A stretch of DNA of 64,000 nucleotides, taken from Isurus oxyrinchus (lineage: Eukaryota). The DNA is taken from NCBI GenBank assembly GCA_026770705.1, contig JANJGN010000017.1:18290001-18354000 (forward strand), written 5' to 3'. The notes under the pieces were generated by a model that saw only the letters and a list, made by a program, of their open reading frames with translations, made no database searches and was not told where the DNA came from. This document shows positions 2,179 to 63,440 of this stretch, one piece after another. The translations under genes and the position numbers were made by a program. Numbering within the stretch: position 1 is the first letter of the stretch; every line of letters begins with the position of its first letter.

Positions 2179-2315
2179 GATCCCGGGGAGCATTCTGTGA
2201 AGTAAAACCCAACGATCGACGAGGTCTGGAATTCTACAGAAAGCTGGGCTTCTTGGAGTTAGCTAAAATGGAGGGATTCCCGAAAGAGATGTTGGTTCTG
2301 GGAAGGAACTTGTAA
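2179..2315 (+). CDS. OGA: O-GlcNAcase terminal coding exon
   Basis: Acceptor ccttatttttttag|GA at 2177-2178, phase-compatible with the previous exon. Translates (G)SRGAFCEVKPNDRRGLEFYRKLGFLELAKMEGFPKEMLVLGRNL*, matching the OGA C-terminus; TAA at 2313-2315. Confidence 0.93.
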
Positions 2316-14356: not shown

Positions 14357-16762
14357 TAGGAACATAAGAAATAGAAGCAGGAGTTGGCCAGTTGGCCCCT
14401 CAAGCCTGCTCTGCCAGTCAGTAAGATCATGACTGATCTAATCTGCCTTAACTCCATTTTCCTATCTGTCCCTCAAAGCCCTGGACCCCCTTGTCAATCA
14501 AAAATGTGTCTAACTTAGCCTTGAATATTTTCAATGACTCAGCCTCCACTGCTCGCTGTGGGAGAGAATTCCAAAACACTAATGATCCTTTGAGAGAAGA
14601 AATGTCTCCTCATCTCCATCTTAAATGAGACCCCCTTTGTAAGCTGTGCCCCCAGTACTAGATTCCCCCATGAGAGAAAAAATCCTCCCAGCACCCACCC
14701 TGTCAAGTCTCTTCAGGATCTTAGATGTTTCAATAAGAACAACTCTCATTCTTCTAAACTCCAACCTTTCCTCATAAGACAACCCCCCTTCATCCCCGGA
14801 ATCAGTCAAATGAATTTTCTCTGAACTGCCTTCAGTGCAAGCATGTCCCTCCTTAATATGGTGACCAAAACTGTACACAGTATGCTAGGTATGGTCTCAC
14901 TAATGTACTGTATAGTTGTAGCAATTCTTCCATACTTTTATACTCTATCCCCTTTCAATAAAGGCCAATATTCCATTTGCCTTCCTAATTGCTTGCTGTA
15001 CCTGCATGTTAACTTTTTGTGACTCATGTACAAAGACACCCAGATCCCTCTGTACTGCAGCATTCTGGAGTACCCCAATTTAAATAATACTGTTTTTCTG
15101 TACTTCCTGCCAAAGTGGATAACCTCACATTTTCCCACATTATACCCCATCTGTCAAATTTTTGCCTGCTCACTTTAACCTATGAGGACATTGGAGCAGG
15201 AGTAGGCTATTCAGCCCCTCGAGCCCGCTCTGCCATTTAACTAGATCATGGCTGATCTACCTCAAAATCATCTTGCCGCACTATCCCCATATCCCTTGAT
15301 GTCATTAGTATCTAGAAATCTAAGAGTTTATGTTGTGTACATACTCAATATCTGATCCTCCACAGCCCTCTTGGGTTGAGAATTCCAAAGATTCACCACT
15401 CTCTGAGTGAATAAATTCCTGCTCATCTCAGCGCTAAATAGCCTGTCTCTTATTCTGAGACTGTGAACCCTGGTTCTAGACACCCTCAACCAAACCAGGG
15501 GAAACATCATTCCTACATCTACCCTGTCAAGCCCTGTAAGAATTTTATACATTTCAATGAGATCACCTCTGATCCTTCTAAACTCCAGTGAATACAGGCC
15601 CAGTCTCCCAATCTCTCCTCATTGGACAATGCTGCCATCCCAGGGATTAGTCCGGTGTACCTTTGTTGCACCCCCTCTGTGGCCAGTATATCCTTCCTTA
15701 GGTAAGAGACCAAAACTTTTTTATTCATTCATGGGATGTGGGCTTCGCTGGCTGGGCCAGCATTTATTACCCATCCCCAGTTGCTGTTGAGAAGGTGGTG
15801 GTGAGCTGCCTTCTTGAACCGCTGCAGTCCATGTGGTGTAAGTACACCCACGGTGCTGTTATGGAGGGAGTTCCAAGATCTTGACCCAGCGATAGTGAAG
15901 GAACAGCGATATATTTCCAAGTCAGGATGGTTAGTGACTTGGAGGGGAACTTCCAGCTGTGGTGTGCCCATCTATCTGCTGCCCTTGTCCTTCTAGATGG
16001 TAGTGGTTGTGGGTTTGCAAGGTGCTGTCGAAGGAGCCTTGGTGAATTCCTGCAGTGCACCTTGTAGATGGTACACACTTTTGCTCGTATGCGTCGGTGG
16101 TGGAGGGAGTGAATGTTTGTGGATGTGATGCCAATCAAGCGGGCTGCTTTGTCCTGGATGGTGTCAAGCTTTTGAGTGTTGTGGGAGCTGCACTCAACCA
16201 GGCAAGTGGGGAGTATTCCATCACACTCCTGACTTGTGCCTTGTAGATGGTAGACAGGCTTTGGGGAGTCAGGAGGTGAGTTACCTGTCACATGATTCCT
16301 AGCTCCTGACCTGCTCTTGTAGCCACAGTATTTATATGGCTAGTCTAGTTCAGTTTCTGGTCAATGGTAACCCCCAAGCTGTTGATAGTGGGGGATTCAG
16401 TAATGATAATGCCAGTGAACATTGAGGGGTGATTGTTGGATTCTCTCTTGTTGGAGATGGTCATTGCCTGACACTTGTGTGGTGAGAACGTTACTTGCCA
16501 CTTGTCAGCCTAAGCCTGGATTTTGTCCATGTCTTGCTGCATTTGGACATGGACTGCTTCAGTATCTGAGAAGTCGCAAATGGTGCTGAACGTTGTGCAA
16601 TCATCAGCGAACATCCCCACTTCCGATCTTATAATGGAAGGAAGGTCATTGATGAAGCAGTTAAATATGGGCTGAGGACACTACCCTGAGGAACTCCTGC
16701 AGTGATGTCCTGGAGCTCAGATGACTGACCTCCAACAACCACAACCATTTTCCTTTGTGCTA

Positions 16763-19700
16763 GTTTAAAAGGACATGTTTAAAAAGAATGTGGAGAGCAG
16801 GAGAGACTTCAGTTTAAAAAGGGCGCGGAGAGCGGCGGGGACTTCAGTTTGGGTATCTTAGGTACCTTGCTGGGAGGCGGAGCAGACCTGCGGGAGATAG
16901 TCGGGAGATGAGAAGCACACAGTTTCACTATTTGAGCTGCTGTGAGGCTACGGTCTGGGAAAAAGAAAAGAAGCAACTGTGATGTTACAAGAAGCTAGTA
17001 AGTCGATTGTCTGGTAAGTGCTCAGTCTAAGGGACAGTGTGTGAGAAACAGACAGGTGAGTTATGGTAGATCAATAAATAAAAAGAACAAAAACTTTAAA
17101 ATAATATACCAAAATTTGAAAACTTTAAACTTAAAATCAAAAGTAATTTAAGCAAACATCTAAAACATATACCTTGTAGTTAAGTATATAACCTTTAGCT
17201 GTCAGTGGTACTAGCATTCAATAAACACAGTAAATTGTAGCATACATAGGAAGAAAGTAATTAAAGTAAATTAACTAAATTACATAAGTTAGAATGGTGG
17301 GGCAGGTGTTATGTTGCAGCTGTGAAATGTGGGCACTTTTGGAGGCCAAGGCAATCCATGACAAACACGTCTGCAGGAACAGCTTGAGGAATTCCGGATC
17401 AGGATTATTGATCTGGAAGCCGAAATGCAGACACTGTGCAACATGAGGGGAGAAATACCTGGATATTTGTTCCAGAAGACAGTCACGCCTTTTGGAAGAG
17501 GGTCATCTGTTTTGGTCAGCAGTGAGGGACAGGAGGATGTGACTGTCAGTGAGGCAGGTAATGGGACTGAGCAGACAGTAGGGGAGGAGCCTCTGGCTTT
17601 GCAATTGTCAAATAGGTTTGAGGTGCTCACAACCCGTGTGAATGAAAGCGAGGTCTGAAAGATGGATGAGCTGGCTGGCTCTGTGGTATAGGAAGCCATT
17701 TAAGCCGGGGGAGCAAAAAGGAATGTAGTGGTAATAGGGAATAGTATAGTGAGGGGGATTGGCACTGTTCTCTGCAACAAAAAGTGGGAGTCCAGATGGC
17801 TATGTTGCCTGCCTGGTGCCAGAGTTTGGGACATCTGCTCAGGACTGGAGAGGAACTTGCAGTGAGAAGGGGAGGATCCAGTTGTCGTGGTCCATGTAGG
17901 TACCAATGACATAGGTAGAACTAGGAAAGAGATTCTGTAAAGTCAGTATGAGGAGCTAGGTACCAAATTAAGAAGCAAAACCTCAGGTAATAATCTCTGG
18001 ATTATTACCTGAGCCACGTGCAATTTGCATAGGGCAAATAAGATTAGAGAGACGAATGTGTGGCTCAAAGACTGGTGTGGGAGAAGTGGGTTCCGGTTTG
18101 TGGGGCACTGACATCAGTACTGGGGAAAGTGGGAGCTGTATTGTTGGGACAGTTTACACCTGAACTGTGCTGGGACAAATGTCCTCGCAAATCGCATAAC
18201 TAGGGAAGTGGAGAGGGCTTTAAGCTAAACAAGAGGGGTGAAGGATCGAGCTTGGGTAGGGGTAGCAATTCAAGGTATAATCAAGGCAGGAGAGCAAAAT
18301 AGTGATATGAGAAAGGAAGGTCAGAAAATGGCAGGAAGGGACAGAGAAAAGAAAAACTATGAATACATCAACAGTCAAGACTGGATGTTACAAAGGTATC
18401 AAAAAGACAAAACTGAAGGCTCTCTATCTGATTGCATGTAGCGTTCACAACAAAGTAAATGAATTGATGACCCACATTGAAGTAAATAAATATGATCTGA
18501 TAGCAATTACGGAGATGTGGCTGCAGGACGACAAAGATTGGGTCCTGAATATTGAAGGGCACATGACATTCAAGAAGAATAGGGAACTAGGTAAAGGTAG
18601 AGGGGTAACACTGTTAATCAAAGAGGGCATTGGTGCAATAGTTAGAGATGACCTCAGTTCAGGAGATCAGCTTGTAGAATCGGTTTGGGTGGAGATGAGG
18701 AATCGTAGGGGAAAAAAGTCATTACTGGCAGCGATCTACAAGTCCCAACAGTAGCTACAGTGTAGGACAAAGTATACAGGAGAAAATATCATGTGCTTGT
18801 GATGAAAGGATGGCAGTAATTGCACTGGAGGGCTTGTAGAGGAGATTCACCAGGATGTTGCCTAGGATGAAATATTTAAGTTATGAAGAGTGGTTGGATA
18901 GACTTGGGTTGTTTTCGTCGGAGCAGAGAAGACTGAGGGGCGACCTGATCGAGGTGTACAAGATTATGAGGGGCATGACAGGGTGGATAGGGAGCAGCTG
19001 TTCCCCTTACGAGGGGACACAAGTTCAAGGTGAGGGGCAGCGGGTTTAGGGAGGATCTGAGGAAAAACCATGGTGACGGTCTGGAATGCGCTGTCTGGGA
19101 GGATGGTGGAGGCAGGTTCGCTCACATCCTTTAAAAAGTACATGGATGAGCACTTGGCACGTCATAACATTCAAGGCTATGGCCAAGTGCTGGTAAATGG
19201 GATTAGGTAGGTAGGTCAAGTGTTTCTCAAGTGTCAATGCAGACTCAATGGGCCGAAGGGCCTCGTCTGCATTCTGTGATTCTGTAATCATGAGTGATTT
19301 TAATCTACGCATAAACTGGAAAAATTAGATTGGTAGTAGTAGCCTCGATGAGGAGTTCTTAGAATACTTTTGAGTTAGTTTCTTAGAGCAGTATGTTCTG
19401 GAACCAACCAGAGAGCAGATTATATTAGATTTGGTATTGTGTAACATGACAAGATTAATCAATGACCTCAGAGTAAAGGAACCCCTAGGTAGCAGCAACC
19501 ACAATATGATTGAATTTTACATCCAGTTTGAAAGGGAGAAGAGCGGGTCTAAGACTAGTATCTTAAAATTAAATAAGGGCAACTATGTGGGGATGAAAGC
19601 TGAGCAGGCTGGTGAACTGGGAAACTAGGCTAGAGGATAGATCAATAGAGAAGCAGTAGCAGACATTTAAGTGGATATTTCAGAGTATTCAGAATAAGTA

Positions 19701-21494
19701 CATTCCTACTATAAAGAAACATTCTAAGGGGAGGACCCAACATCCATGGTTAGGTAGAGATGTTAAGGAAAGCATCAAACTTAAGGATAAAGCATACAAC
19801 TCTGCAAAAATGGCAGAACAGACGATTCGTCAGAATACAAAGAATAGCAGAGAATAAAAGGTTAATCGGGAGAAGGAATTAAGAATATGAGAGGAAGCTA
19901 GTCAGAAATATAAAAATGGATAGCAAGAGTTTCTACAGGCGTCTAAAAAGGAAAAGAGTAAGTAAAGCGAATGTGAGTGACATGGGGGAATTAATAGTAG
20001 ATAATAAGGAAATGGCAGAAGAAATGAACAAATATTTTGCTTCTGTGTTCACTATAGAGGATACAAAAAACATTCCAGTAAAGCTGCAAATCAGGAGGTG
20101 AACAGGAGAAAGGAACTTGGTGAAATCGAAATCATTAGGGAAACTGTACTGAGCAAATTGATGGAGCTGCAAGCTGGCAAGTCTCCAGGTCCCAATGGAC
20201 TACATCCTAGGGTCTTAAAAGAGGTGGCTAATGAGGTAGTTGATGCGCTGGTGTTAATATTCCAAAATTTGCTAGATTCTGGAAAAGTTCCATCAGACGG
20301 GAAAGTAGCAAACATAACCCCTCTATTCAAGAAGGGAGGGACACAGAAAACAGGAAACTATAGGCCAGTTAGATTGACACCTGTTGTGGGGAAGTTATTA
20401 GAATTGATCATTAAGGAGGCTATAGCTGGGCACTTAGAAGAGCTCAAGGCAATTGGGAAGAGTCAACATGTTGCGTGAAAGGAAAATGTTTAACCGATTT
20501 ATTGGAGTTTTTTGAAGGAGTAACATGCGCAGTGGATTAAGGGGAACTTATAGATGTACTGTACTTGGATTTCCAGAAGGTATTTGGTAAGATGCCACAT
20601 CAAAGATTATTACGGAAAATTAAAGTGCATGGTGTAGTGGGTAACATATTAGTATGGATAGAAGATTGGATGACTGACAGAAAAGAGAGAGTATGCATAA
20701 ATTGGTCTTTTTCTGACTGCAGGATGTGATGAGTGAAGTCCCACAGGGGTCTGTACTGGGGCCTCAACTTTTTATGATATACATCAATGACTTAGATGAG
20801 GGGAGTGAAGGCATGGTAGCTAAATTTGCAGATGACGCAAAGATAGGTAGGAAAGTATGTTGTGAAGAGGACATGAGGTTGTAGATGGATATAGATTGGT
20901 TGAGTGAGTGGGCAAAGATTAGGCAAATGGAGCTTAATGTGAGAAAATGTGAAGCTGTTCACTTTGGCAGGAAGAACAAAAAAGCAGAGTATGACTTAAA
21001 TGACTTATGGTTGCATAATTCTGAGGTGCAGATGGATCTAGGTGTTCGAGTACGAGTCACAAAAAGTTAGTATATAGGTACAGCATGTAATTAAGAAGGC
21101 TAATGGAATGCTATCCTTTATTATGAGAGGTATTGAACATAAAATAAGGATGTCATGCTTCAATTATTCAGGGCATTGTGAGATCGCACCTCGAATACTG
21201 TGTGCATTTTGGTCTCCTTATTTAAGGAAGGATGTAAATGCATTGGAGCCGGTTCAAAAGAGGTTTACTAGATTGATACCTGGAATGAGTGGGTTGTCTT
21301 ATGAGGAAAGGTTGGTCAGATTGGGCTCATTTCCACTGGAGTTTAGGAGAGTGATGGGTGATATGATTGAAGTATACAAGATCCTGAACGGCCTTGACAA
21401 GGTGGACATCGAAAGGATGTTTCATCTTGTGGGTGAGTCCAGAACTAGGGGGCACTGTTTTAAAATTAAGGGTCGCCCTTTTAGGGCAAAGAGA
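16763..21494 (+). mobile_element. Near full-length CR1 LINE (5'UTR, ORF1 with SGNH esterase, ORF2 APE endonuclease + RT), disabled; 3' end deleted
   Basis: ORF1 remnants VVVIGNSIVRG, VVVHVGTNDIG, DSLHLN; ORF2 remnants [44 protein letters not shown]; repeated gtttaaaaag motifs in the 5'UTR. Confidence 0.9.
18821..19283 (+). mobile_element. CR1 3' fragment inserted in the endonuclease region of the 16763-21494 CR1
   Basis: Ends in an attctgtg-type repeat tail; GTAAT duplicated at 18816-18820 and 19284-19288; host reading AVI|M.DFN resumes. Confidence 0.85.
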
Positions 21495-24400
21495 CATCAG
21501 CCTTGCCTTTTGTGCTGATGTTCTGGGCTCCCCCATCATTGAGGATGGGGATATTTGTGGATCCTCCTCCTCCGGTGAGTTGTTTAATTGTCCACCACCA
21601 TTCATGACTGGAAGTGGCAGGACTGCAGAGCTTAGATCTGATCCGTTGGTTGTGGGATTGTTTAGCTCTATCACTTGCTGCTTATGCTGCTTGACGCACA
21701 AGTAGTCCTGTGTTATAGCTTCACCAGGTTGACACCTCATTTTTTTCGGTGTGCCTGATCCTGCTCCTGGCATGCCCTCCTGCACTCTTCATGGAATCAG
21801 AGCTGATCCCCAAGCTTGGTGGCAATGGTAGAGTGGGGGATATGCCGGGCCATGAGGTTACACATTGTGTTTTGAGTACACTTCTGCTGCTGATGGCCCA
21901 CAGTGCCTCATGGATGCCCAGTCTTCAGTTGCTAGATCTGTTCGAAATCTATCCCATTTAGCACGGTGGAAGTGCCACACAAAACGATGGAGGGTATCCT
22001 TAATGTGAAGGTGGGACTTCATCTCCACAATGACTGTGCGGTGGTCACTCCTACCGATACTGTCATGGACAGATGCAAGTGCGGCAGGCAGGTTGTTGAG
22101 GATGAGATCAAGTAATTTTTTTCCCTTTTGTTGGTTCCCTCCTGCTGCAGACCCAGTCTCGTAGCTATGTCATTTAGGACTTGGTCAGTAGTGGTGCTAC
22201 CGAGCCACTCTTGGTGGTGGACATTGAAGTCCCCCAACCAGTGTACATTCTGTGTCCTTGCCACCTCAGTGCTTCCTCCAAGTGGTGTTCAACATGGAGG
22301 AGCACTGATTCATCAGCTGAGGGAGGGCGGTACGTGGTAATCAGCAGGAAGTTTCCTTGCCCATGTTTGACCTGATGCTATGAGATTTCATGGGGTCCGG
22401 GGTCGATAATGAGGACTCCCAGGGCAACTCCCTCCCTACTGTATACCACTGTGCCCGCCACCTCTGCTGGGCCTGTCCTGCCAGTGGGACAGGACATACC
22501 CAGGGATAATGATGGTGGAATCTAGGACATTATCTGTCAGGTATGATTCTGTGAGGATGACTATGTCAGGCTATTGCTTAACTAGTCTGTGAGACAATTT
22601 TGGCACTAGCCCCTAGATGTTAGTAAGGAGGACTTTGCAGGGTTGACAGGGCTGAGTTTGCCAGTGTCATTTTTGGTGCCTGGGTTGATGCCAGGTGGTC
22701 CATCCAGTTACATTTTTTTTTGTCACTTTGTTGCAGTTTGTTACAACCTAGTGGCTTGCTAGGTCATTTCAGAGGGCATTTAAGAGTCAACCATATAGCT
22801 GTGGGTCTGGACTCAGACCAGGTAAGGATGACAGATTTCTTTCCCTAAAGGACATTAGTGAACCAGATGGGTTTTTACAACAATTGACAATGGTTCCATG
22901 GTTATCTATTCAAATTCAAATTCCACCATTTGCCATGGCAGGATTGGAACCTGGAATCCCAGGGCATTACCCTGGGTCTCTGGATTACTAGTCCAGTGAC
23001 AATACCACTGCGCCATCACTGCACACAATACTCCAGGTGCAGTTTCACCAAGGGTCTATTCAACTGCAGCAAGACTTCTTTACTCCTGCACTGAAATCCC
23101 GTTGCAGTAAATGCCAACACACCATTTGCCTTCCTAATTGCTTGTTTCATCTGCAAGTTAGCTTTCAGTGACTTATGAACAAGGACACCCAGGTCCCTTT
23201 GGATATCAGCACTTTCCAATTTCTCCCTATTTAAGAAATACTCCACATTTCTGTTTTTCCTACCAAAGTGGATAACTTCACTGCACCGCCACACACCCAC
23301 CACCCCCCCCAACAGCCCACCTGCCATGTTCTTGCTCACTCACTTAGCCTGTAGAAATCCGCTGGAAGCCTCTTTACAACCTCCTCACAACTCTCATTCC
23401 CACCAAATTTTGTGTCATCAGCAAACTTGGAAATATTACATTTGGTCCCCACATCCAAATCATTGAAGTAGATTGTGAATAGCTGGGGCCCAAGCACTGA
23501 TCCTTGTGGTACCCCACTAGTCACAGCCTGCCACTCTGAGAATGATCCATTTATCCCTACTCTCTTGTTTTCTGTCCGTTAACCAATCCTCAATCCATGT
23601 CAGTAAATTACTCCCTTATATTATCTATGTCACTTTGCAGAGTTTGTATCCTCCTCACGACTTGTTCTCCTACCTAGCTTGGTAACATCAGCAATTTGAC
23701 TACACTACAGTTGGCCCCTTAATCCAAATTATTGATATAGATCGTAAATAGTTGAGGGCCCAACACTGATCCTTGTGGCACTCCACTAGTTACAGTTTGC
23801 CAACCTGAAAATGATCCATTTATCCCGACTAGTTACAATCTGTTTCCTGTTAGTTAGCTAGTCTTCTATCCATGGTAATATATCACCACAACACCCTATG
23901 CTCTTACCTTGTGTAGTAATATTTTATGTGGTACCTTATGGAATGCCGTTTGGAAATTCACAGAATCACAGAATCTTTACAGTGCAGAAGGAGGCTATTC
24001 GACCCATCAAGTCTTCACTGACTTTCTGAATGACCGTTCTACCTAGTCCCTGCTCCCCTGCCTTATCCCTGTAATCTTGTACATTCTCTCTTTTCAGATA
24101 GCAATCCAAATCCCCCTTTGAATACCTCGATCGAACCTGCATCCACCATGCTCTCAGGAAATTTGTTCCAGACTCCAACCATCCGCTGGGTGAAAAATAT
24201 TTCCTCACATCACCTTTACTCCTTTTGCCAATTATTTTGAATCTGTGCCCTCTAGTTCATGATGTTCTCTTAAGGATCTTGAATATCTCTATCACGTCTC
24301 CCCTCAGCCTATCCAAATGTACCACATCTCTGGTTCCCCTTTATCCACCTTGTTTATTAAATCCACTTTAATAAATCAGTCAAATACCATTTCCCTTTTA

Positions 24401-26336: not shown

Positions 26337-29300
26337 CTTTCAACGGAAAATTCAGAAGTCAAACTTCAGTCAAAAAAATGTTGTGCTCGTGAAACTGAGA
26401 GATCTCTGTGTAAAATCTACTCAGGACAGTCTTAAGTCAGGTACACCAAGGTTAAACAAAAACAGAGAATGCTGGAAAAACTCAGCAGGTCTGATAGCAT
26501 CTATGGAGAGAAAGACAGAGTTAACGTTTCGAGTTCGTATGACTCTTCTTCAGAGCTCAAGAGAAGTAAAAATGTGATGAAATTTATACTGTTTGAGGGA
26601 GGTGGAGCAGATGAAGCTGGATTGAAGGCCAGCGATAGGTGGAGACAAAGGAGAGATTGACAAAGATGTCATGAACAAAAGGACAAAGGGGTGTTAATGG
26701 TAGTGATACTGGCTAAAGGAGGTGCTGATAGTGGCATTAAGGTAGAAAGCAGAATGTGGTAATAGCAGGACAAGGGTAAGCACTCTGGAAAGAACAACAC
26801 GAGCAAGTGACAGATGGCCCTAGTGGAGGTGGGGTGGGGGGAGGGGACAGTGGTGGAAAAAGATTGAAAATAGGATAAAAGGTGGGGATAAAACAATGAA
26901 TAAAAATGAAAATAAATAAAAATAAGTGGATAAAAATTTTAAAAAATGAATATTGAAAAAAGTGGATTAAAAGGAGTGGGGATGGAGGAGAGAGTTCATG
27001 ATCGAAGTTGTAGAATTCAATGTTAAATCCGGAAGGCTGTAAAGTGCCTGATCGGAAGATGAGGTGCTGTTCCTCCAGTTTGTGGTGGGCTTCACTGGAA
27101 CATTGCAGCAGGCCAAGGGCAGACATGTGGGCATGAGAGCAGGGTGGTGTGTTGAAATGGCAAGCGATAGAAAGGTCTGGGTCATGCTTTGCGGACAGAC
27201 TGAAGGCGGTCTCTCCAACGTAAAGGAGGCCACGTTGGGAGCAGCGAATGAGTAGACCAAATTGAGGGAAGTGCAAGTGAAGTGCTGCTTCATTTGAAAG
27301 GAGTGTTTGGGCCTTTGGACGGTGAGGAGGAAGGAAGTAAAGGGGCAGGTGTTGCAACTTCTGCGATTGCATGGCAAGGTGCCGTGGGAGGGGTTGAGGT
27401 ATTGGAGGAGTGGACCAGGCTGGCCCGGAGGGAACGGTCCCGACGAAATGCCGACAGGAGGGTGTCCTCATCTTCCGATTAGGCACTTTACAGCCTTCCG
27501 GACTTAACATTGAGTTCAACAACTTCAGACCATGAACTCTCTCCTCCATCCTCACCCCTTTTTTCAACATTCATTTTTATTTATTTTTATTTTTTATTTA
27601 TTTTCAGTTTTATTCATTGTTTTATCCCACCTTTTATCTTATTTTCGATCTTTTTCCCTCCACAGTCCCCTCCTCCGACCCCCACTCCGGCCATCTGTCA
27701 CTTGCTCATGTTGTTCTTCCCAGAGTGCTTACCCTTGTCCTGCTATTACCACATTCTGCTTTCTAACCTTAATGCCACCATCAGCACCTCCTTTAGCCAG
27801 TATCACTACCATTAACACCCCTTTGTCCTTTTGTTCATGACAATCTCTCCTTTGCCTCCACCTATCGCTGACCTTCCATCCAGCTTCACCTGCTCCACCC
27901 CCCTCAAACACATTTCATCACATTTTTACTTCTCTTTAGCTCTGAAGAAAAGTCATATGGACTCGAAAAGTTAACTCTCTTTCTCTCCACAGATGCTGTT
28001 AGACCTGTTGAGTTTTTCCAGCATTCTCTGTTTTTGTTTCAGATTTCCAGCATCTGCAGTATTTTGCTTTTTGCTTACACCAAGGTTAGATACAGAGTAA
28101 AGCTACCTCTACACTGTCGCCATCAAACACTCCCAGGATAGGTACAGCACGGGGTTAGATACAGAGTAAAGCTCCCTCAACACTGTGCCCATCAACTACC
28201 CTCAGGGCAGGTACAGCATGGGATTAGATACAGAGTAAAGCTCCCTCTACACTATCCCCATCAAACACCCCCAGGACAGGTACAGCACGGGGTTAGATAC
28301 AGAATAAAGCTCCCTCTACACTGATCCCATCAAATACCCCCAGGACAGGTACAGCACGGGGTTAGATACAGAGTAAAGCTCCCTCTACACTGTCCCCATC
28401 AAACACTCTCAGGACAGCTACAGCATGGGGTGAGATAGAGAGTAAAGCTCCCTCTACATTGTCCCCATCAAACACTCCTAGGGCAGGTTCTGCAGCGGTT
28501 TGTTATGGATGATTTACTCCAACAATGTATTTTAGTCCCAATCTCAGATAATTGCTTATACTGCACTAATTACAGCGGTCGTAGCAACCAGCAGACGCTA
28601 GCAGACCACCCAGTCACTGCACTGCCCCTCAGGCTCATCACTGGCAAATCCAAGGGGCCCCTGATGATCTGTTTATCACTGATTCCAAATTTAGGCCCAA
28701 AAGAAAAACTTGCATTATTTTGGCACCTTTCTCAGTCTCAAGACTTCATTGACTGTAAAATACTTTGGGAAGTCCTGGAGTGTAGTCACTGTAGTTGTAA
28801 TGTCAGAAACACAGCAGGCAATTTGCACACAGCCATTCCCACTAGCATTAATTGATCAGATAATCTGTTTTTGTGGTGTTGCTTGAGGGGTAAATTTTGA
28901 TCAGCAGCTCAGATATACCTTCGCTGGACTCCTCTGATAAGGTAGCAGTAGGATTTTTTATGTATACCTGAGAGGACAGATTGGTTTAACGTCTTATCCA
29001 AGATTTAAGCTCCAAAGGTGTAGTGCTCAGTAGCTCAGTATTCTCTTTTTTTTTATAATTCATTCATGGGATGTGGGCTTCGCTGGCTGGGCCAGCATTT
29101 TATTGCTCATCCCTAATTGCCCTTCAGAAGATGGTGGTGAACTGCCTTCTTGAACTGCTGTTAGTCCATGTGGTGTAGGTACACCCATAGTGCTGTTAGG
29201 AAGGGAGTTCCAGCAACAATGTAGGCACGTGATATATTTTCAAGGCAGGCTGGTGAGTGACTAGGAGGGGAACTTCCAGCTGGTGGTGTTCCCACCTATC

Positions 29301-32300
29301 TGCTGCCCTTGTCCTTCTAGATGGTAGTGGTCGTGGGTTTGGAAGGTGCTGTTGAAGGAGCCTTGGTGAATTCCTGCAGTGCATCTTGTAGATGTTACAC
29401 ACTACTGCTACTGTGCGTCGGCGGTGGAGAGAGTGAATGTTTGTGGATGTGATGCCAATCAAGTGGGCTGCTTTGTCCTGGATGGTGTCAAGCTTCTTGA
29501 GTGATGTGGGAGCTGCACTCATCCAGGCAAGTAGGGAGTATTCCATCACACTCCTGACTTGTGCCTTGTAGATGGTGGACAGGCTTTGGTGAGTAGGAAG
29601 TGAGTTAATCACCACAGGATTCCTCGCCTCTGACCTGCTCTTGTAGCCACAGTATTTATATGGCTAGTCCAGTTCGGTTCCTGGTCAATGATAACCAGGA
29701 TGTTGATAGTGGGGTATTCAGTGATGGTAATGCCATTGAATGTCAAGGGCCGATGGTTAGATTCCCTCTTGTTGGAGATGTTCATTGCCTGGTACTTGTG
29801 TGGCATGAATGTTACTTGCCACTTGTCAGCCCATATTATCCAGATCTTGCTGGATTTGGAGAAGGACTGTGTCAGTCCATGTCCAAGTGTACTGAAATGT
29901 CAGGCTGGATTAAGTGTTCAAGTCTCTGGAGTAAGGATTGAACCCTTGATCCCTCTAAGAGTGGTAAGAATGCTACCCACCAAGATCCTGCCTGGGGGCA
30001 TTGTGAGCTTCACCTCTAGTACCGGACACTGAGGAGGCCTATGCTTCATAGCTTGTACTTGTACCCTTACCACATTTATTTGTCACACTCACCTGTGTCC
30101 CTCAGCCCAGCAAGGATCTTATTGAAGACACCTTTGTGCGATTGTCCATCTGGATGTGTGATGAGAACGTCCACATCCCCACAGGTGGGCTTCCCGCGGC
30201 GATATGAACCACAGGCCATGGCAATCAGGGTTGGATTAATCGAGTGAGCCATATCACTCACCTGGACAGCACAGATAAGATTGATATGTACATACGAACA
30301 TACAGATTAGGAACTGGAGTAGCCTGCTCCACCATTCAATAAAATCATGGTTGATCAGATTTTAACCTCACTCCACATTCCTGCCTATCCTTATAACCTT
30401 TCACCCCTTGCGTATCAAGAATCTATCTACCTCTGCCTTAAAAATGTTCAAGGTCTTTACCTCAACCACCTTCTGAGGAAGAGAGTTCCAAAGTCTCACA
30501 AGACTATGAGAGAAAATTTTTTCCTCATGTCTTAAATGAGCGACTTCTTAATTTTAAACAGTGACCCATCGTTCTAGATTCTCCCACAAGAGGAAACATT
30601 CTCTCCACATCCACCCTGTCAAGTCCCCTCAGGATCTCATATGTTTCAATCAAGTCACCTCCTACTCTTCTAAACTCCAGTGGATACAAGTCTAGCCTGT
30701 CGAGCCTCTCTTCACAACACAACCTGCCCATTCCAGGTATTAATCTAGTAAACCTTCTCTGAACTGCTTGTAATGCATTTACATCTTTCCTTAAATAAGA
30801 TGACCAATACTGTACACAGTACTCCAGATGTGGTCTCACTCGTGCCCTGTACAACTGAAACATAACATCCCTATTCTTGCATTCAGCTCCTCTTGCAATA
30901 TACAATAACATGCTATTAGCTTTGCTAATTACTTGCTGCACCTGCATCCTAACCTTTTGCGATTCATGCACTAGGACACCCAGAATCCTCTGCATTGCAG
31001 AGCTCTGCAATCTTTCACTGTTTAAATAATATGCCTTTATTTTATTCGTCCCACCAAAATGGACAACCTCACATTTTCCCACATTATACTCCATTTGCCA
31101 GATCTTTGCCTACTCACCTAATCTATCTATATCCTTTTGTTACTTATTTTCCCACCTATCTTTGTGTCATCAGCAAATTTAGTAACCATATTATTGATTC
31201 CTTCATCCAAATCATTTATATAAATTATAAAGAGTTGAGGTCCCATCACCAATCCCTATGGCGCACTACTCGTCATATTCTGTCAACCAGAAAATGACCT
31301 ATTTATACCTACTCTCCTATTCCTGTTAGCTAACCAATCTTCTATCCATGCCAATGTTACCTAATACACCATGAGCTTTTATTTTCCACAATCTTTGATG
31401 AGGCTCCTCCTGAAAGTCTAAGTACTGTACATCCCTTTATTCACAGCACCTGTTACTTCTTCGAAGAATGATTGATAATGACCAACACTGGATTACAGCT
31501 CATCCCCCTCTCTACTCTGACACTGGGGAACTGTTCACCCCCTCTCCATTCCTCTGACATGGATTACTGTTGATCCCCCCTCTCTGCTCCTCCATCACTG
31601 GATTACAGCTCAACCCCTCTTCACTTCTCTGACACTGGATTACAGCTCAACTCCTCTCCACTCCTCTGACACTGGATTACAGCTCATCTTCCCCCCTCTA
31701 CTCCTTGGACACTGGATTACAGCTCATCCCCACCCCCCCCCCCACTCCTCGACTCTGGATTACTGTTCACCTCCCTCTCTACTGCTCCGACACTGGATTA
31801 CTGTTCAAACCCCCTCTCCACTCCTCTAACATTGGATTACAGTTCAACCCTCTCCACTCCTCCGACACTGGATTATTGTTCATCCCCCTCTCCCCTCCTC
31901 CGTCACTGGATTACAGCTCCTCCCCCTTTTCATTCTTGGTTATTTCTCCATTCCAATCTCTTTGGCACCATCTCTCTCCCCTCTGCCTCATTATCTTCCT
32001 TCCTTCAGTTAGAAAGTTCTTAACTCCTGCTGCCCTGATTGTGCTTTTCAATTTCTTGCGCCTCCTCCTGAATATATTAATGTATGGAGTTTGCAATGAA
32101 GCCATTGATGGTAACTGTATTGTCAGGCAGCTAAGCTGATAGAATCTTGACAGTTTCAGTCAAATCTAGCTAATTCGTTTGACATACAGATAGACAGTTT
32201 AATCCTGTTAATCCCTTTCTCAACGCCTTATAGCCTCACTAGGGTCCCAGTCATTGCTGTGAGTAATCCTATCACTGAACAATGGGCTTTGCTCCCCTCG

Positions 32301-35300: not shown

Positions 35301-38300
35301 CTCTCAGCCAGAGCAAGTCTAAAGCTCTGACTGGTAACCCTAAACATGCCAGCAGAGATTTACAATGTGTCGCAGCACACTAAACCATTGACTACTAACA
35401 GATCCTAGAGGAGTACAAAGATGTGTTTATAGGATTGGGATGTCTACCTGGAGAATATCATCTAGAATAGATGAGACTGTAAGACCAATTCAGTATCTGC
35501 CGAGAAGAGTTCCAGCTGCCCTCAAGATGGTTGTGTGTGCCATTTAGCATTTCCATGGCTGCAGAAGAGTAACAACACAGAGAGCATGAGATAGTCAGTG
35601 ATCTTCCCGGAGTGGAAGCTATAGTAGATGATCTGCTATTCTATTGATGTGGAGACACAAAGGAAGAAGCCATGAATGACCATGATCAGAATTTAATATG
35701 ACTAGTAGAGAAAGCTTGCCAAATGAACCTGAAACTGAATGAGAAAAAATTGCAATTGAAGATGCGTGAAGTCAAATACATAGGTCATGTACTAACAGCA
35801 AAAGGTCTTCGCCCAGATCCTGACAAGGTGAGAGCTGTAGCAGTGATGCAGCAACCAACAGAAGTGAAAGCAGTGCAATAATTTGTTGGATTCATGAACT
35901 GTTTAGCAAAGTTTTTGCCTAATTTATCGTCGGAGTGTGAAGCATTATGCAAGCTCACAGCCAAGGATGTGCAGTGGTATTGGGGTACAGAACACGAATC
36001 AGCATTCAATAAAATCAACAACAAGTGACAACAACACCAGTGAAGTACTATGACTTTAATGAAGAAGTCGCCTTGCAGTCTGATGCCAGCGAAACAGGTC
36101 TTAGAGCAACCCTGATGCGCAAGGACCACCAGTCCCATTTGCACTGATGCGCAAGGACCACCAGTCCCATTTGCATCCAGGCCATTAATGCAAACTGAAC
36201 ATTAGGCTTAGATCGAGACACAGTGCCTGACTATTGCTTTTGATTGTGAGCGTTTTCATCAAAGCCTGCTTGGGAGAGACAACGTAACGGTGGATCCAAC
36301 CACAAGCCACTTCAAAGCATTCTCCTCAAACCACTACTGTCTGCTCCAAAGTATCTACAAAGAATGTTAATTCATTTACAGAGATATCGCTTTTTTATTA
36401 ATTCATGGGATGTGGACATTGTTGGCTAGGCCAGCATTTATTGCCCATCCCTTATTGCCCTTGAGAAGGTGGGGGTGAGCTGCCTTCTTGAACCCTGTAC
36501 TCCAGGTGCTGTAGGTACACCCACAGTGCTGTTAGGGAGGGAGTTCTAGGATCTTGACCCAGCGACAGGGAAATATATCGCGGTTCTTTCAAAGTCAGGA
36601 TGGTGAGTGGCTTGGAGGGAAACTTCCAGGTGGTGATGTTCCCATATCTCTGCTGCCCTTGTCCTTCTAGATGGTAGCCGTCATGGGTTTGGAAGGTGGT
36701 GTCTAAGGAGCCTTGCTTAGTTCCTGGCAGTGCATCTTGTGGATGGTACATACTGCTGCCACTGTGCATTAGTGGTGGAGGGAATGAATGTTTGTGGATG
36801 TGGTGTCAATCATCTGCACGTGATATAGAAGCAAAGGAAACATATGTACATTGCTGACATGCTGTTGAGAGCAGCACTCCCCATGAAGAAAGTTGAGGAT
36901 GTTCAACAGAATGTGAGATCTTCTAGATTCAAAGTGAAGCAGCAGCTTGACATGCTCTGGAATTCATCAACCTAGCAAAGATGATGAATCTGACAGACAA
37001 ACACCTTGCTCGAATCAAGCGATCTAACCAACAAGATACAATCTCCAAGTGTGCAAGAATGGCCTGAGAGCATCAAGGACACAACTGTGATCACAAGAGC
37101 ATATTGGGCATACTGAGGTGAACTGATAGCCCAAGATGGCATCTTGAACAAAGGAAATAAGAGTCATCATCCCTAAGGGAAGAAATGTTGAAGCACATCC
37201 ATGCAAGCCACCAAGTAAATGAATTGAGTCTGAGAAAAGCAAGAGAAATGCTCTACTGGCCAAACATGAGCAATGAAATTAAAGACCACATTGGCAAGTG
37301 CGGTGCTTGTAACGAGCACCAACCTAAATCATTCATGAGTGAAGAGCTCAGCCGTTTCACAGGATTGGAAAATTCAACACTATACATTATCTCTGCATTA
37401 TACACGGTTGAATGGAAAGACTGAGGTGGCAGTGAAAATTGCCAAATGAATTATCAAGAAATTGAGTAAATCTAGCACAGATACATACATGGCAATCCCC
37501 GAGTGGAGAAACACACCAACTGAAGTCCTGGAAAATAGTCCAGTCCAAAGACTAATGTCAAACTACTCTTCTAATATCAAAATGCTACTGAAGCCAGAAG
37601 TAGTAACAGGCATGTGTGAAAATATCAAGGAGAAACGGCAGAAAGCTAAATTTCATTTTGACAAGACTGCCAAACCATTGGTAACGTTGAGCATTGGAGA
37701 GCCAGTCAGGGTACAAATCTTCAATACTCTCAACAGGAGTCAGCCCACGTGGAAACTTAGGACGTACATAGAACAGTTGTCACCTCGATCGTACGCGGTA
37801 GACATGAACAACCAAATATACTGCAGACACATACAAACAACTAGAGAAGCTGTTCCTTCACTGCAGACACATACAAACAACTAGAGAAGCTGTTCCTTCA
37901 CTGCAGGCGGCCGGTCAGGAAGATGGGATCTCACCAGCTGCACAGAATACAGAACGGCCATCATTCCCAGTGGTCCACCAGTCCCCACCAACAGAAATGG
38001 AACAACAACAATCGTTACCACGGCAACAAGTGCCATGGGAACGTTGCCCCCATGCCAGAGAAGGAACATCACCCAGAAGAACAGCCAATGACGACATGCA
38101 CATGCACCATTAACAGACCTGCACGATTTAACAACTATGCGTGCAATGCATTTGCAGAGTCTAACTAGAATAACGAACAGCTTGTTAATGCATGATAACA
38201 GTTGTGGTCTAATGGGTAACGCACAGTTTCACATGATAGTGCATGCAAATTTGTCTTTGTTTGTTATGGAAAGGGGGATGTTTAGGTTTTGAAATGCAAT

Positions 38301-41300: not shown

Positions 41301-44300
41301 TATAGAAATATCAGGCTTTGGTATAACATGCTATAACTTGGGAGCCTGGTTTCTGTAGTCTACCGGCTGTAACTCTAACAAACAAGGTCCAGGAGAGCAT
41401 GAAGGCAACAACAGTAAACCCAAGCATCTGCTCAAAGAATAGAAAACGCTGCATAACCTGCATCCCACCTGTTGGTACCACATCTGAGCTGTCTTCACAC
41501 CAGCTCCCCAGATGTTCGAGAAGGTTTCTAGCACAGGGACGCTCTCACTGATGTAGTCAAGCTTGCGCAGGTGCCCGCTCTGTAGTATCTCTCTGATTTT
41601 CTCAGCCATGCGTTTGCCAATACCAGGGATCTTGCAGGCTTCCTGTGAGTGGCAAAGGGGAAATCAGCTCCAAAATAAGTTTACAAACACAAATCAAGCC
41701 AAGTCTTTAAGGTTGTTAAAAAAGTGAATGGAATCCTTGACTTAGAACATAAAATCAAGGAAGTTATGCTAAATCTAAAGACAACACTGATTGGGCTCCA
41801 GTGAAAGGTTTGTGGCCAATTCTGGGCACCATTCTTGGAAGGTTGTCAACCTTGTGGAGGGTGTAGAAGGGATTTGCTAGATTGATACCAGGGATGAGGA
41901 ACTTCACTTATGTGGAGAGTCTGGAGAAACTGGAATTTTTTTTTAATTATTTGTGGGCTTTGCTGGTTAGGCCAGGGTTTGCTGCCCATCTCTAATTGCC
42001 CTTGAGGAGGTGTTGGTGAGCTGCCTTTTTGAACTGCTGCAGTCCATGTGTTGTGGTAAAAGCCACAGTGTTATTAGGAAGGGAGTTCCAGGATTTTGAC
42101 TCAGTGACAATGAAGGAACGGTGATATAGTTCCAAGGCAGGATGGTGTGTGACTTGGTGGTGTTCCCATTCATCTGCTGCCCTTATTCTTCAAAGAGGTA
42201 AAGGTCACAGGTTTGGAAGGAGCTCTTGAAGGAGCCTTGGTGAGTTGCTGCAGTGCATCTTGTCGATGGTACACACTGCTTCCACTGTGCGTCAGTGCGG
42301 GAGGGAGTGAATGTTGAAGGTGGTGGGTGGGGTGCCAATCAAGTGGGCTGCTTTGTCCTGGATGGTGTCAAGTTTCTTGAGTGTTGTTGGAACTGCACTC
42401 ATCCAGGCAAGTGAACAGTATTCCATCACACTCCTGACTTATGCTTTGTAGATGGTGGACAGGCTTTGGGAAGTCAGGAAGTGAGTTACTCGCCACAGAA
42501 TTCCCAGCCTGTGACCTGCTCTTGTCACCACAGTACTTATATAACTGGTCCAGTTCAGTTTCTGGTCAATGGTAACCCCCAGGATGTTGATAGTGGGGGA
42601 TTCAGCAATGATAACACCATTGACTGCCAAGGGGAGATGATTAACTTCTCTCTTATTGGAGATGGTCATTGCCTGGCACTTATGCAGTGCAAATGTTACT
42701 TGCCACTTATCAGCCCAAGCCTGAATGTTGTGCAATCATTGTGCAATCATCTGTGAACATCCTACTTCTGACCTTATGATGGATGGAAGGTCATTGATGA
42801 AGCAGATGAAGATGGTTGGGCCGAGGACACTACCCTGAGGGACTCCTGCAGCGACGTCCCGGGACTGAGATGATTGGCCTCCAACAACCACAACCATCTT
42901 CCTTTGTGCTACGTATGACTTCAACCAGTGGAGAGCTTTACCCCTGCTTCCCATTGACGTCAGTTTTGCTAGGTCTCCTTGATGCCACACGAGGTCAAAT
43001 GCTGCCTTGATGTCAACGGCAGTCACTCTCACCTCGCCTCTTGAGTTCAGCTCTTTTGTCCATGTTTGGGCCAAGGATGTAATGAGGTCAGGAGCTGAGT
43101 GGCCCTGGCGGAACCCAAACTGAGCATCAGTGAGCAGATTATTGTTGAGTAAGTGCCGCCAAATAGCACTGTTGATGACCCCTTCCATTGCTTTACTGAT
43201 GCTGGAGAGTAGACTGATGGGGTGGTAATCGGCCGGGTTGGATTTGTCATGCTTTTTGTGTACAGGGCCTAGCTAGGCAATTTTCCACATCGATGAGTAG
43301 ATGCCAGTGCTGTAGCTGTACTGGAACAGCTTGGCTATGGGTGCGGCTAGTTCTAGATCACAGGTCTTCAGTACCATTGCAGGAATGTTGTTAGGGCCCA
43401 TAGCCTTTGCAGTATCCAGTGCTTTTAGCCATTTCTTGATATCGCATGGAGTGTATCAAATTGGTTGAAGACTGGTATCTGTGAAGCTGAGGGCCTCAGA
43501 AGAAGGCTGAGATGGATCATCCACTCGGCACTTCTGGCTGAAGATTGTTGCAAATGCTTCAGCCTTGTCTTTTGCACTGATGTGCTGGGCTTCCTCAATC
43601 ATTGGGGATGGGATATTTGTGGAGCCTCCTCCTTTAGTTAGTTGTTTAATTGTCTACTGCCATTCACGACTGAATCTGGCAGGACTGCAGAGCTTAAATC
43701 TGATCCATTGGTTGTGGAATCATTTAGTTCTGTATATCACTTGCTGCTTGTGCAATTTGGTATGCAGGTAGTCTTATGTTGTAGCCTCACTAGGTTGAGA
43801 TCTTATTTTTAGGTATGCCTGGTGCTGTTCCTGGCATGCCCTTCTGCATTCTTTATTGAACAAGGATTGATCCCTGGCTCGATGGTAATGGGAGAGTGGG
43901 AGATATGGCGGGCCACAAGGTTACAGATTATGGTTGTATACAATCCTGCAGCTGATGGCCCACAGTGCCTCATGGTTGCTCAGTCTTCAGTTGCTAGATC
44001 TGTTCTGGATTTAGCACGATGGTAGTGCCACACAACATGATGGAGGGTATCCTCAATGTGAAGATGGGACTTCATCCCTACAAGGACTAAACGATGGTCA
44101 CTCCCATCGATACTGTCATAGACAGATGTATCTTCAACAGGTAGATTGATAAGGATGAGATAGAGTATGTTTTTCCCTCTTTTTGGTTCCTTGAGCAACT
44201 GCCGCAGACCCAGTCCAGCAGCTATGTCCTTTAGGAGTTGGCCAGCTCGGTCAGTAGTGGTGCTACCGAACCACTCTTGGTGCTGGACATTGAAGTCCCC

Positions 44301-47300
44301 CAGCCAGGGTACATTCTGTGCCCTTGCAACCCTCAATGCTTCCTCCAAGTGGTGTTCAACATGGAGGAGTATCGGTTCATCAGCTGAGGGGGCTAGTAGA
44401 TGGTATCAGTAGGAGGTTTTCTTGCCCATGTTTGACCTGATGCCATTAGGTCTGGAGCTGATATTGTGAACTCCCAGAGGGCAACTCCCTCTCGCCTGTT
44501 TACCACTATGCTGCCACCTCTGTTGGGTCTGTCCTGTTGGTGGGATGCCAGTACTCCTCCATGTTAAACACCACTTGGAGGAAGCACTGAGGGTTGCAAG
44601 GACACAGAATATACCCTGGGTGGGGGACTTCAATGTCCAGCAGCAAGAGTGGTTCGGTAGCGCCACTACTGACCAAGCTGACCAGTGGATCCCAGGGACG
44701 GTGACAGTGGTGTCTGGACATTGTAAGGTATTGTTCTGTGAGTACGGCTATGTCAGGCTGTTGCTTGACTAGTCTGTGGGACTGATCTCCCAATTTTTGC
44801 ACAAGCCCCCAGGTGTTAGTAAGGACGACTTTGCAGGGTTGACAGGGCTGGGTGTGGCATTGTTTCTGGTAACTAGGTTGATGCCGGGTGGGCCGTCCGG
44901 TTTCATTCCTTTAAGGCTTTGTAGCAGTTTGAAAAAACTGAGTGATTTGCTTGACCATTTCAGGTGGCAGTTAAGATTCAACCACATTGCTGTGGGTCTG
45001 GAGTCACATGTAGGCCAGATTTTCTTCCCTAAAGGGCATTCGTGAACAAGGTAGGTTTTCATAATAATCAATAATCTTAGACTAGTTTTTAATTCCAGAT
45101 TAAATAACTAATTTAACTTCCACCAGCTGCTGAGGTGGGATTTGATCCAGATGTCCCCAGAGCATTAGCCTGGGCCCCTGGATTACTTGTCTAGTGATAT
45201 TACCACTGCTCCATCGCCTCTTTCTCCTTGGAGCAGAGAAGGCTAAGGTTAATGGAGGGGGTTCAAAATCATGAAGGGTTTTGGAAGAGTAAGTATGGCG
45301 AAAATGTTTCCACTGGCAGGTGTGTTAGTAACCAGAGGACACAGATTTAAGATAATCAGCAAAATAGCCAGGGAGTTGGCGGGGGAAAATAAGGAGAAAT
45401 TTTTTACATTGCAAGTTGTTGTGATCTGAAATGAGTTGTCTGAAAGGGAACTGGAAGCAGTTTCAATTATAACATAGTCATAGAATGCTTAGAGCACGGA
45501 ACGAGGCCATTTGGCCCATCATGTCTGTACCGGCTCTCTTCAAGAGCAATTCGCCTAGTGTCACTTCCTTGCCTTTTCTCTGTAGCCCTGCAAATCTTTC
45601 CTCTTCAGATAATTATCAAATTCTCTTTTGAAAACCTGCCTCCACCACACTCTTAGGCAGTGCATTCCAGATCCTAACCATTCCCTGTGTATAAAGATTT
45701 TTCCTCATGTCTCCATGGCTTCTTTTGCGAATCATCTTAAATCAATGACTCTGGTTCCCCATCCTTCCACCAATGGGAACAGTCCCTCCCCATGTACCTT
45801 AGTCCAGACCCCTCATGATTTTGAATACCTCTATCAAATCTCCTCTCTTTAAGGAGAACAATCCCAGCTTTTCCAATCTATCCACGTAACTGAAGCTCCT
45901 GAAACCACTCTCGTGAATCTTTTCTGCGTCCTCTCTAATACCGTCACATCCTTCCTAAAGTGCAGTGTCCAGAACTGGCGCAATACTCCAAAACTCTGTG
46001 CCCCTATTAATAAAGCCCAGCATCCCTTAAACTTTATTAACTGCTCTCTCGACCTGCCTTGCAACCTTCAATGATTTATGTACATATATCCCCAGCAACA
46101 TTTGCTTTAATTTTTTCCATCTATGTGTATTAAGAATTTTGTTACGTGCACCAATATCAAGGTAATGTGCGGATGAACGCTGCCAGGAGAAACAAAAAAC
46201 TCTCTATAATATATACTTTTTAAAAGTTACCACAGGTATGGAAGAAGAAAGAATACCAGCCCCAGCCATTGACACATTTGACACGTTAAAAACATAAGGG
46301 TATTTTTAGGGAGTTTGTGACCAGTTTTGGATTCCTAATTCTGATCTCCACAAAGGTTCTCATGGGACCATAAGGCCATAAGATGTAGGAGCAGAAGTAG
46401 GTCATTCAGCCCATCGAGTCTGCTCCACCATTCAATGAGATCTTGACTGATCTGATAATCCTCAACTCCACTTTCCTGCCTTTTTCCCATAACCCTTGAT
46501 TCCCTTACTGATTAAAAATCTGTCTATCTCAGCCTTGAATATACTTAACGACCCAGCTTCTACAGCCTTCTGCAGTAAAGAATTCCACAGATTTAGTACC
46601 CTCTGATAGAAGGAATTCCTCCTTATCTCTGTCTTAAATGGGTGACCCTTTACTCTGAGATTATATCCTCTGGTCCTAGACTCTCCCACAAGGGGAAACA
46701 ACCTCTCAGCATCTACCCTGTCAAGCCCCCTAAGATTCTTATATATTTCAATAAGGTCATCTCTCATTCTTCTAAACTCCAATGAGTACAGGCCCAACCT
46801 ACTCAACCTCTCCTCATAAGAAAATCCCTCCATTCCCAGGATCAACCTAGTGAACCTTCTCTGGATTACATCCAATGCCAGTTTATCTTTACTTAGATAA
46901 GGAGGCCAAAACTGTTCACTGTATTTTAGGTGTAGTCTAACTAGTGCCTCATATAGTTTTAGCAAGACTTCCCTATTTTTATATTCCATTCCCTTTGACA
47001 TAAAGGCCAACATTCCATTTGCCTTCCCTATTACCTGCTGAGCTTGTATGCTAGCATTTTGTGATTCATGCACAAGGACCCCCAAATCCCTGTGCTGCAG
47101 CTTTCTGCAGTCTTTCTCCAGTTAAATAATATTCAGCTCCTCTATTCTTCCTGCCAAAGTTCACAACCTCACATTTTCCCACACTATATTCCATCTGCCA
47201 AGTTTTTGCCCACTCACTTAATCTGTCTATATCCCTCTGTAGACTCTTTGTGTCATCCTCACCACTTGACTTTCCACCATTTGAAACCATATATACTTCC

Positions 47301-56465: not shown

Positions 56466-63440
<6,975 letters not shown>

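Follow-up and report, generated by a model that had tools for sequence, protein, structure and literature searches.

Within the window, that is, the whole stretch of 64,000 nucleotides of Isurus oxyrinchus DNA analysed here, two long copies of a LINE lie on the minus strand, each opening with a tRNA-like head. Copy 1 is a dead, decayed element that runs from 23017 down to 15717, head through A-tail, and covers nt 10-1590 and 2237-3289 of the family consensus, nt 1591-2236 being lost. Its head (22930..23017, minus strand), derived from tRNA-Thr(AGT) as judged with ARAGORN and an alignment to the tRNA-Thr genes of the same genome, is followed on that strand by a structured 5' leader (22741..22929) with several upstream AUGs and a conserved hairpin containing AUG-GCC-UAG. 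This leader is common to short derivatives of the element and recurs in five published consensuses. Then come the decayed 5' part of a single open reading frame, with a basic tract, an APE endonuclease and a linker (21497..22740; a conserved out-of-frame AUG at 22713-22711), the equally decayed 3' part with the RT and the C-terminus (15791..16763), and a 3' tail of AATAAA and an A-run (15717..15790), a piece also common to the short, SINE-like derivatives. The endonuclease motif starts about 390 nt downstream of 23017 with no ORF1 in between, in agreement with the earlier note, which had placed the head shortly before the endonuclease. The note had described copy 1 as a LINE capped by its head; the unit is confirmed, but it is interrupted by nested later insertions of antisense CR1 pieces and other DNA (16764..21496), which are not part of the element and replace the lost consensus stretch.

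On both sides copy 1 is bordered by a host CR1 on the minus strand (5' flank 23018..23281, 3' flank 15193..15716). From 23018 upwards and from 15716 downwards these flanks rejoin into a continuous CR1 with 2 bases extra, possibly a duplication or else the terminal bases of the head, so the head, ORF and tail were inserted here together; head, leader, endonuclease-RT frame and A-tail have moved as one unit. Copy 2, the second head-bearing copy that the note had mentioned, is near full length (41936..45222, minus strand, head through A-tail), with a head of the older type at about 45125-45222. Its flanks are CR1-like by eye and did not rejoin against the CR1 consensus built here. At 44549-44683, where part of copy 2 is deleted, 135 nt of its endonuclease region stand in inverted orientation instead. 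More 5'-truncated pieces of the same family lie at 1207-1275, 29052-29876, 36391-36812, 51582-51644, 52748-52956 and 62046-62833, the last on the plus strand.

Both long copies lie downstream of, and on the same strand as, two exon-like frames with HHH_8 and BRCT domains (47615-48079 and 49979-50521, minus strand). Together these look like a gene for a family X DNA polymerase, which I take to be polymerase lambda. Another repeat with long open frames, perhaps akin to Penelope-type elements, is found at 26454-28039, 39978-40351 and 59504-60561, with no Pfam match in the two frames tested. Tandem arrays of the minisatellite type occupy 28076-28494, 31482-31936 and 48502-48776.

The family and its 5' end

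The I. oxyrinchus genome (4.98 Gb) was searched with pieces of the element, which returned between 2259 and 8810 initial candidates, the best 40 being scored each time. The earlier note had proposed checking whether full-length copies begin at the head, and they do: the copies of the family share one start point about 8 nt 5' of 23017 (GGGGAGGC; these bases are missing in copy 1), and among 83 long copies the upstream flank is common to only one pair, which is 99.8% identical and belongs to a duplicated region. When only the endonuclease was used as query, the best alignment started inside the first 74 nt of the head at 13 of 29 non-self loci, and the remaining loci were truncated or broken within the leader. 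Of the 30 loci that searches with the head alone gave for each head type, the query copy counted in, the long, short and other elements numbered 15, 12 and 3 for type 1 and 13, 12 and 5 for type 2. An ORF1 upstream of the head was ruled out, as the 5' flanks are unrelated between copies, and so was a chance adjacency of a SINE, given the head searches, the rejoined CR1 flanks and the unshared flanks of the long copies. The 3.3-kb LINE with its single ORF truly begins at the head, and the linkage of the two is family-wide.

A consensus of 20 copies from this one genome, to which the copies are 88-94% identical, measures 3289 nt. It contains one frame from nt 320 to 3229 (about 970 codons, with two ambiguous stops at variable sites), preceded by only about 320 nt, and Pfam recognises Exo_endo_phos (APE endonuclease) and RVT_1 (RT) in it. 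The copies end with AATAAA and a short A-run. None of the copies fetched is intact, and no target-site duplications were seen by eye in eight full-length copies.

I identify this family as the known elasmobranch Zenon, abundant in sharks and rays. According to the available text of the paper that describes it, Zenon occurs in elasmobranchs, coelacanth and hagfish, never with an ORF1 and always with a poly-A tail, the latter unique to Zenon among CR1-group elements (PMC13343379). The supplement of that paper lists consensuses for five elasmobranch species (CarCar_, HypSab_, RhiTyp_, ScyCan_ and SquAca_Zenon; seven rows, 2886-3314 nt), and two exact motifs of the window family could be located in its rows. 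Compared by eye over the first 400 nt of those rows, the consensuses of all five species open with the same head and leader, A and B boxes included, and the consensus of the window family is near-identical to CarCar_Zenon-1 (total lengths 3289 and 3288 nt); within the same visible 400 nt, no such head appears in the three hagfish and coelacanth Zenon rows. The window family lacks ORF1, encodes its APE endonuclease and RT in one ORF and ends in AATAAA plus A-run, and in structure it does not differ from the elasmobranch Zenon as described in the available text, with its single ORF, missing ORF1 and A-tail (PMC13343379). The apparent lack of ORF1 that the earlier note had remarked upon is real, in that none lies between head and endonuclease, but it is not unusual, since all Zenon elements are without ORF1.

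The RT phylogeny that had been suggested for assigning the element to a clade places it in a group of 17 rows (98/97) whose other members include proteins of crustaceans and beetles, while vertebrate CR1 forms a separate clade (100/99); no row of the tree is a named Zenon reference. Its protein relatives are mostly endonuclease-RT proteins of 920-1090 aa on contigs of 3-4.6 kb; the closest one found (P0003, 983 aa on a contig of 3619 nt, 49% identity) also has an unusually low Phe content, 2.3%. At 56 of 80 metagenome LINE loci ARAGORN found one antisense tRNA-Ile and no sense head, and a B-box scan of 42 upstream regions of such loci gave one unconvincing match. As these loci are distant and mostly not Zenon, these scans say little on invertebrate Zenon.

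The family is thus not novel as such, being catalogued with the head in its published consensuses, though the head goes unremarked there as far as the available text extends (PMC13343379). In that text, "tRNA", "promoter" and "pol III" have 0 matches in the main part, and "tRNA" has 0 in the first 400 characters of the supplement cells, although figures may hide remarks; the head, the terminator avoidance, the missing AUG and the short derivatives were not found described in it. A whale shark preprint (10.1101/443036) mentions a CR1-Zenon-like LINE once and tRNA never in its available text. A literature search that covered papers turned up no autonomous LINE reported to carry a tRNA head or to be driven by Pol III. 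The Zenon family and its lack of ORF1 are thus already known, with the head in print as sequence letters only, as far as this search reaches; what appears to be new here is the tRNA-type 5' architecture of a known family, which carries a strong sequence signature of Pol III transcription.

The tRNA-Thr-like head

All head motifs named in the earlier note are present on the minus strand of copy 1 where it had placed them: the A box (23015-23005), the anticodon arm (22996-22980), an extra hairpin (22976-22958) and the T arm with the B box (22953-22939), the B box having C where the consensus has G. ARAGORN calls a tRNA-Thr(agt) at 22930-23023, the sole call in the 64-kb window. For comparison with tRNA-Thr(AGT), a search of the genome with the head pattern gave 49 matches, 15 of which were fetched, including two identical true genes (L281 and L285). 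The Zenon-family head agrees with these at 50 of 72 aligned bases and carries an additional 20-nt insert in the variable region, and the score of this alignment exceeds that of all 1000 shuffles. The comparison identifies the Zenon head as a derivative of tRNA-Thr(AGT) that has retained the A box, the anticodon arm and the B box.

The origin proposed in the earlier note therefore stands with the alignment and the ARAGORN call, but the cloverleaf was overstated. The Rfam tRNA model gives the head of copy 1 only 21 bits against a gathering score of 29, its fold has a z-score of -1.6 (-0.9 for the head of copy 2), no better than shuffles, and ARAGORN called a tRNA in 0 of 8 other family copies tested. 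By eye, the acceptor stem shows no pairing in the tRNA register. The head is best described as a promoter relic and not as a true or working cloverleaf; a functional tRNA gene was ruled out by the low Rfam score, the lack of calls in the other copies, the 20-nt insert and the unpaired acceptor register. Likewise, the idea that an intact tRNA fold serves RNA stability or translation is a weak one, since nothing of the tRNA beyond the A and B boxes and two arms has been retained.

The extra hairpin (22958-22976) has, by eye, a constant loop between species in the published consensuses, with a stem altered on both sides, and in the dogfish rows it resembles a duplicated anticodon arm. It is mostly missing in the stingray row and in the non-tRNA matches of the head pattern search, and hence appears dispensable. 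In the two decayed copies searched, Rfam gave no ribozyme match at E values up to 5, and no likeness of the region after the head to BivaMeta-SINE1, BivaMD-SINE1 or two UCON3 rows was seen by eye.

T-runs, codons and start sites

In vertebrates, Pol III stops at runs of four or more T, and the earlier note had advised examining the consensus for internal TTTT. The sense strand of 3289 nt has 0 T4 runs, versus 15 A4, 11 C4 and 9 G4. Depending on the null model, the probability of this absence is 0.012 (mononucleotide), 0.08 (synonymous shuffle) or 0.20 (first-order Markov); as it is marginal by itself, the case rests on TTT and on near-terminators. Over the whole consensus TTT is observed 6 times against 21.2 expected, a number as low as this being reached in 0 of 2000 shuffles, and in the ORF 4 times against 12.9 under a synonymous codon shuffle (0.31 of expectation). 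All four of the latter are Phe codons and none spans a codon junction, while AAA, CCC and GGG in the ORF are at 0.96-1.06 of expectation. The near-terminators TTTVT and TVTTT are absent (0 vs. 13 in CR1). The host CR1 consensus, also built from 20 copies of this genome, has TTT at 0.92 of expectation and five T4 runs. In 50 metagenome LINE ORFs (the ones among 80 loci whose frame reaches 600 codons; identity 25-37%, most of them richer in T) the TTT ratio ranges from 0.80 upward with a median of 0.99, and T4 occurs in 50 out of 50. The protein of the window family contains 1.9% Phe, below all 55 full-length homologues compared (mean 5.2%, lowest 2.3%). Judged from a consensus of 20 copies of one genome, with CR1 and distant, mostly T-richer LINEs as controls, the sense strand is specifically purged of T-runs. 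The earlier suggestion that the element may be Pol III-initiated gains support from this depletion.

The genome holds two head types, each with its own master sequence. The type-2 master is the majority of 16 loci projected on the type-1 consensus; two of these loci are short elements, with long matches that come from neighbouring fragments. As it differs little from the first, the second master is no independent test of the T-run depletion. Between the two masters, 24 synonymous and 8 non-synonymous differences are observed in non-CpG codons (3 and 5, respectively, in CpG-affected codons), and 27 of 33 changes fall on third codon positions, a pattern that indicates purifying selection on the protein of the head-bearing masters. 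Together with the 3289-nt consensus and the family-wide linkage of head and LINE, this bears out the autonomous-type SINE-LINE unit of about 3.3 kb that the earlier note had proposed.

It is less evident where translation of this protein would begin. Eleven AUGs occur in the first 350 nt, none of which opens a frame into the endonuclease in the majority sequence. The last in-frame AUG stands in a strong context and is followed by UAG in 59 scored copies and by GAG in 17, and a second stop (TAA) after it is kept in 57 copies and is TAT in 31 (counted in alignments of 148 loci, a few of them fetched twice). The UAG, which sits in a predicted hairpin, is also seen in the visible part of published shark and ray consensuses. 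A further AUG, out of the endonuclease frame, is retained in 88 copies and in the visible part of the published consensuses of all five species; its out-of-frame relation to the endonuclease holds in 80 of 112 copies and, by eye, in the stingray consensus as far as that row is visible. By eye, no -1 slippery heptamer could be made out in the stretch from this conserved AUG to the endonuclease. Ahead of the first motif, the endonuclease frame encodes a stretch rich in Arg that resembles the homologues at their N-termini; the Met that follows in this frame is residue 285. At nt 115 the leader contains an AATAAA. From these observations I infer that the protein could start by an internal non-AUG entry or by a frameshift, which would suit an uncapped RNA. 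Some masters may nevertheless have an ordinary AUG start, as the 17 copies with GAG for UAG and the 31 with TAT for TAA suggest.

Transcription and the short derivatives

LINEs and SINEs are set apart by their polymerases, coding elements being assigned to Pol II and short, non-coding ones to Pol III. My reading of the present family, which I consider probable, departs from this rule: the tRNA-Thr-derived head would be the internal Pol III promoter of the whole 3.3-kb protein-coding Zenon LINE, whose RNA would be translated cap-free and copied by its own protein, with deletions giving rise to SINEs. TFIIIC would bind the A and B boxes of the head, and Pol III would start at the first G and read through 3.3 kb, as no T4 terminator is encountered until the flank. 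Translation of the uncapped RNA would then start internally, from the structured leader, and probably at a non-AUG codon or with a frameshift; cap-dependent scanning is disfavoured by the eleven AUGs in the first 350 nt, none opening into the endonuclease. The encoded protein would copy its own RNA by target-primed reverse transcription, the mechanism by which LINEs are copied, and since this RNA contains its own promoter, the mere loss of an internal stretch would be enough to make a finished SINE of it. In its most complete version this reading makes the elasmobranch Zenon a self-mobilising "coding SINE", an autonomous LINE that is transcribed by Pol III end to end from a captured tRNA promoter, has had its codons and Phe residues rewritten against terminators, lacks a cap and a usable AUG, gives off SINEs by internal deletion and is shared by sharks and rays; to that full combination I would assign an even chance.

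The literature, in its available parts, describes LINEs and their bipartite derivatives as Pol II products (Kojima 2018, PMC5786205; Kojima 2024, PMC10886601) and Pol III elements as limited in length (Kojima 2024, PMC10886601). A Pol II transcript of the present element that starts in the leader or reads through from host genes would conform to this. The head would then be a captured relic that serves TFIIIC binding, chromatin insulation or RNA stability, and the loss of T-runs could reflect avoidance of U-rich decay or slippage of the RT. A capped RNA would be translated more easily, the tail has AATAAA before its A-run, and both copies in the window share the strand of the host gene with the BRCT and HHH_8 exons. 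However, the depletion is limited to T-runs of the sense strand and is absent from CR1 and the 50 other LINE ORFs, five species have preserved the A and B boxes but not the acceptor stem, and the leader contains eleven upstream AUGs and an AATAAA, so I consider this explanation unlikely. A division of labour, in which a Pol III RNA is the copied template while distinct, capped Pol II or read-through transcripts, from the same copy or from others, supply the protein, seems to me somewhat less probable again. It would explain terminator avoidance without translation of an uncapped RNA, and it agrees with the strong context of the in-frame AUG and with the loss of both following stops in some copies. 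On the other hand, the UAG is the majority state (59 scored copies) and is present in the visible published shark and ray consensuses, and purifying selection on the head-bearing masters themselves would fit best with action in cis.

That head and LINE came together by accident, or that an independent SINE recombined repeatedly with 5'-truncated LINEs, I regard as very improbable, even though a short form with the same head is abundant and an exchange of 5' ends could cause the grouping by head type described below. In five species the long form opens with a single constant 5' sequence that shows no junction, the short forms carry the LINE's own tail with breakpoints that differ per head type, and among 60 head matches, 7 of them unclassified, no head-bearing family with an unrelated tail was found.

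In the short forms of type 1, about 365 nt long, the first 292 nt are joined to the last 73 nt of the LINE (breakpoints 292 to 3217); in those of type 2, about 390 nt long, the first 315 nt are joined to the last 73 nt (315 to 3216). A third breakpoint was seen at one short-form locus. In a tree built from the part common to long and short forms, the copies separate according to head type (SH-aLRT 97) and not according to length, although the head types had already been selected by the queries; within each type, long and short copies show the same degree of divergence (0.91 and 0.92 in one type, 0.89 and 0.89 in the other). Contigs of four runs from four organisms, whose status as RNA is a guess, pass from leader to tail at the same junction, and their cover drops 5' of the head. 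The simplest reading of these data is that the short forms appear to be products of repeated internal deletion of the LINE, which would have happened at least twice; alternatively, an exchange of 5' ends between long and short forms may have caused the grouping by head type. Four further head-bearing loci (L043, L052, L249 and L259) have other, larger internal deletions, e.g. 468 to 1982, 406 to 3165 and 765 to 2925, which suggests that deletion during copying is frequent.

With a tRNA head, a non-coding body, the tail of a partner LINE, dispersed copies and a fixed structure, the short derivatives have the features of SINE2 elements; tRNA-derived SINE2s have exactly their build, in which a body stands between a head containing A and B boxes and the tail of a LINE. 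SINEs are described, in the available text, as non-coding and of 100-700 bp (PMC10886601). The long form shares the SINE2 head but is neither short nor non-coding, having 3.3 kb and an ORF under purifying selection, and the short forms here appear to be deletion products of their own partner LINE instead of fusions between separate parts. The Persaeus SIDE is likewise a short, internally deleted 5'-plus-3' derivative of a lepidopteran Zenon, but the available part of its description states that it has no tRNA homology or Pol III promoter (PMC6740152). ZenoSINE and Fritillar of Heliconiini are SINEs with Zenon 3' tails, as are the short forms here, but their heads are joined to that tail by fusion, and the available text does not report that the partner LINE itself begins with such a head (PMC6685494). 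The TRIMp3 elements Helenus, Ajax and Cassandra are, like Zenon here, non-SINE retroelements with a Pol III promoter derived from a small RNA, but are given in the available text as non-autonomous LTR elements of 311-1263 bp without a protein (PMC10886601). Finally, R2, RTE and Ingi elements with 5' HDV-like ribozymes are, in the descriptions available, single-ORF LINEs in which a structured 5' RNA sets the 5' end and which spawn bipartite derivatives, as here. They differ in that the 5' end of the present element is of the tRNA-promoter type, the two copies searched having no Rfam ribozyme match. R2 is translated independently of AUG, and some Ingi and Vingi entries in Repbase have 5' ends derived from small RNAs.

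If the Pol III reading of this element is true, a 3.3-kb coding LINE on a tRNA promoter would break the polymerase rule that separates LINEs from SINEs, and a Pol III RNA would act as a natural mRNA in a vertebrate. The 300-nt leader would then point to a new cap-independent start element, and internal deletion would be a one-step route to the birth of a SINE. As the element is abundant in sharks and rays, thousands of Zenon heads will inflate the tRNA gene counts in their genomes.
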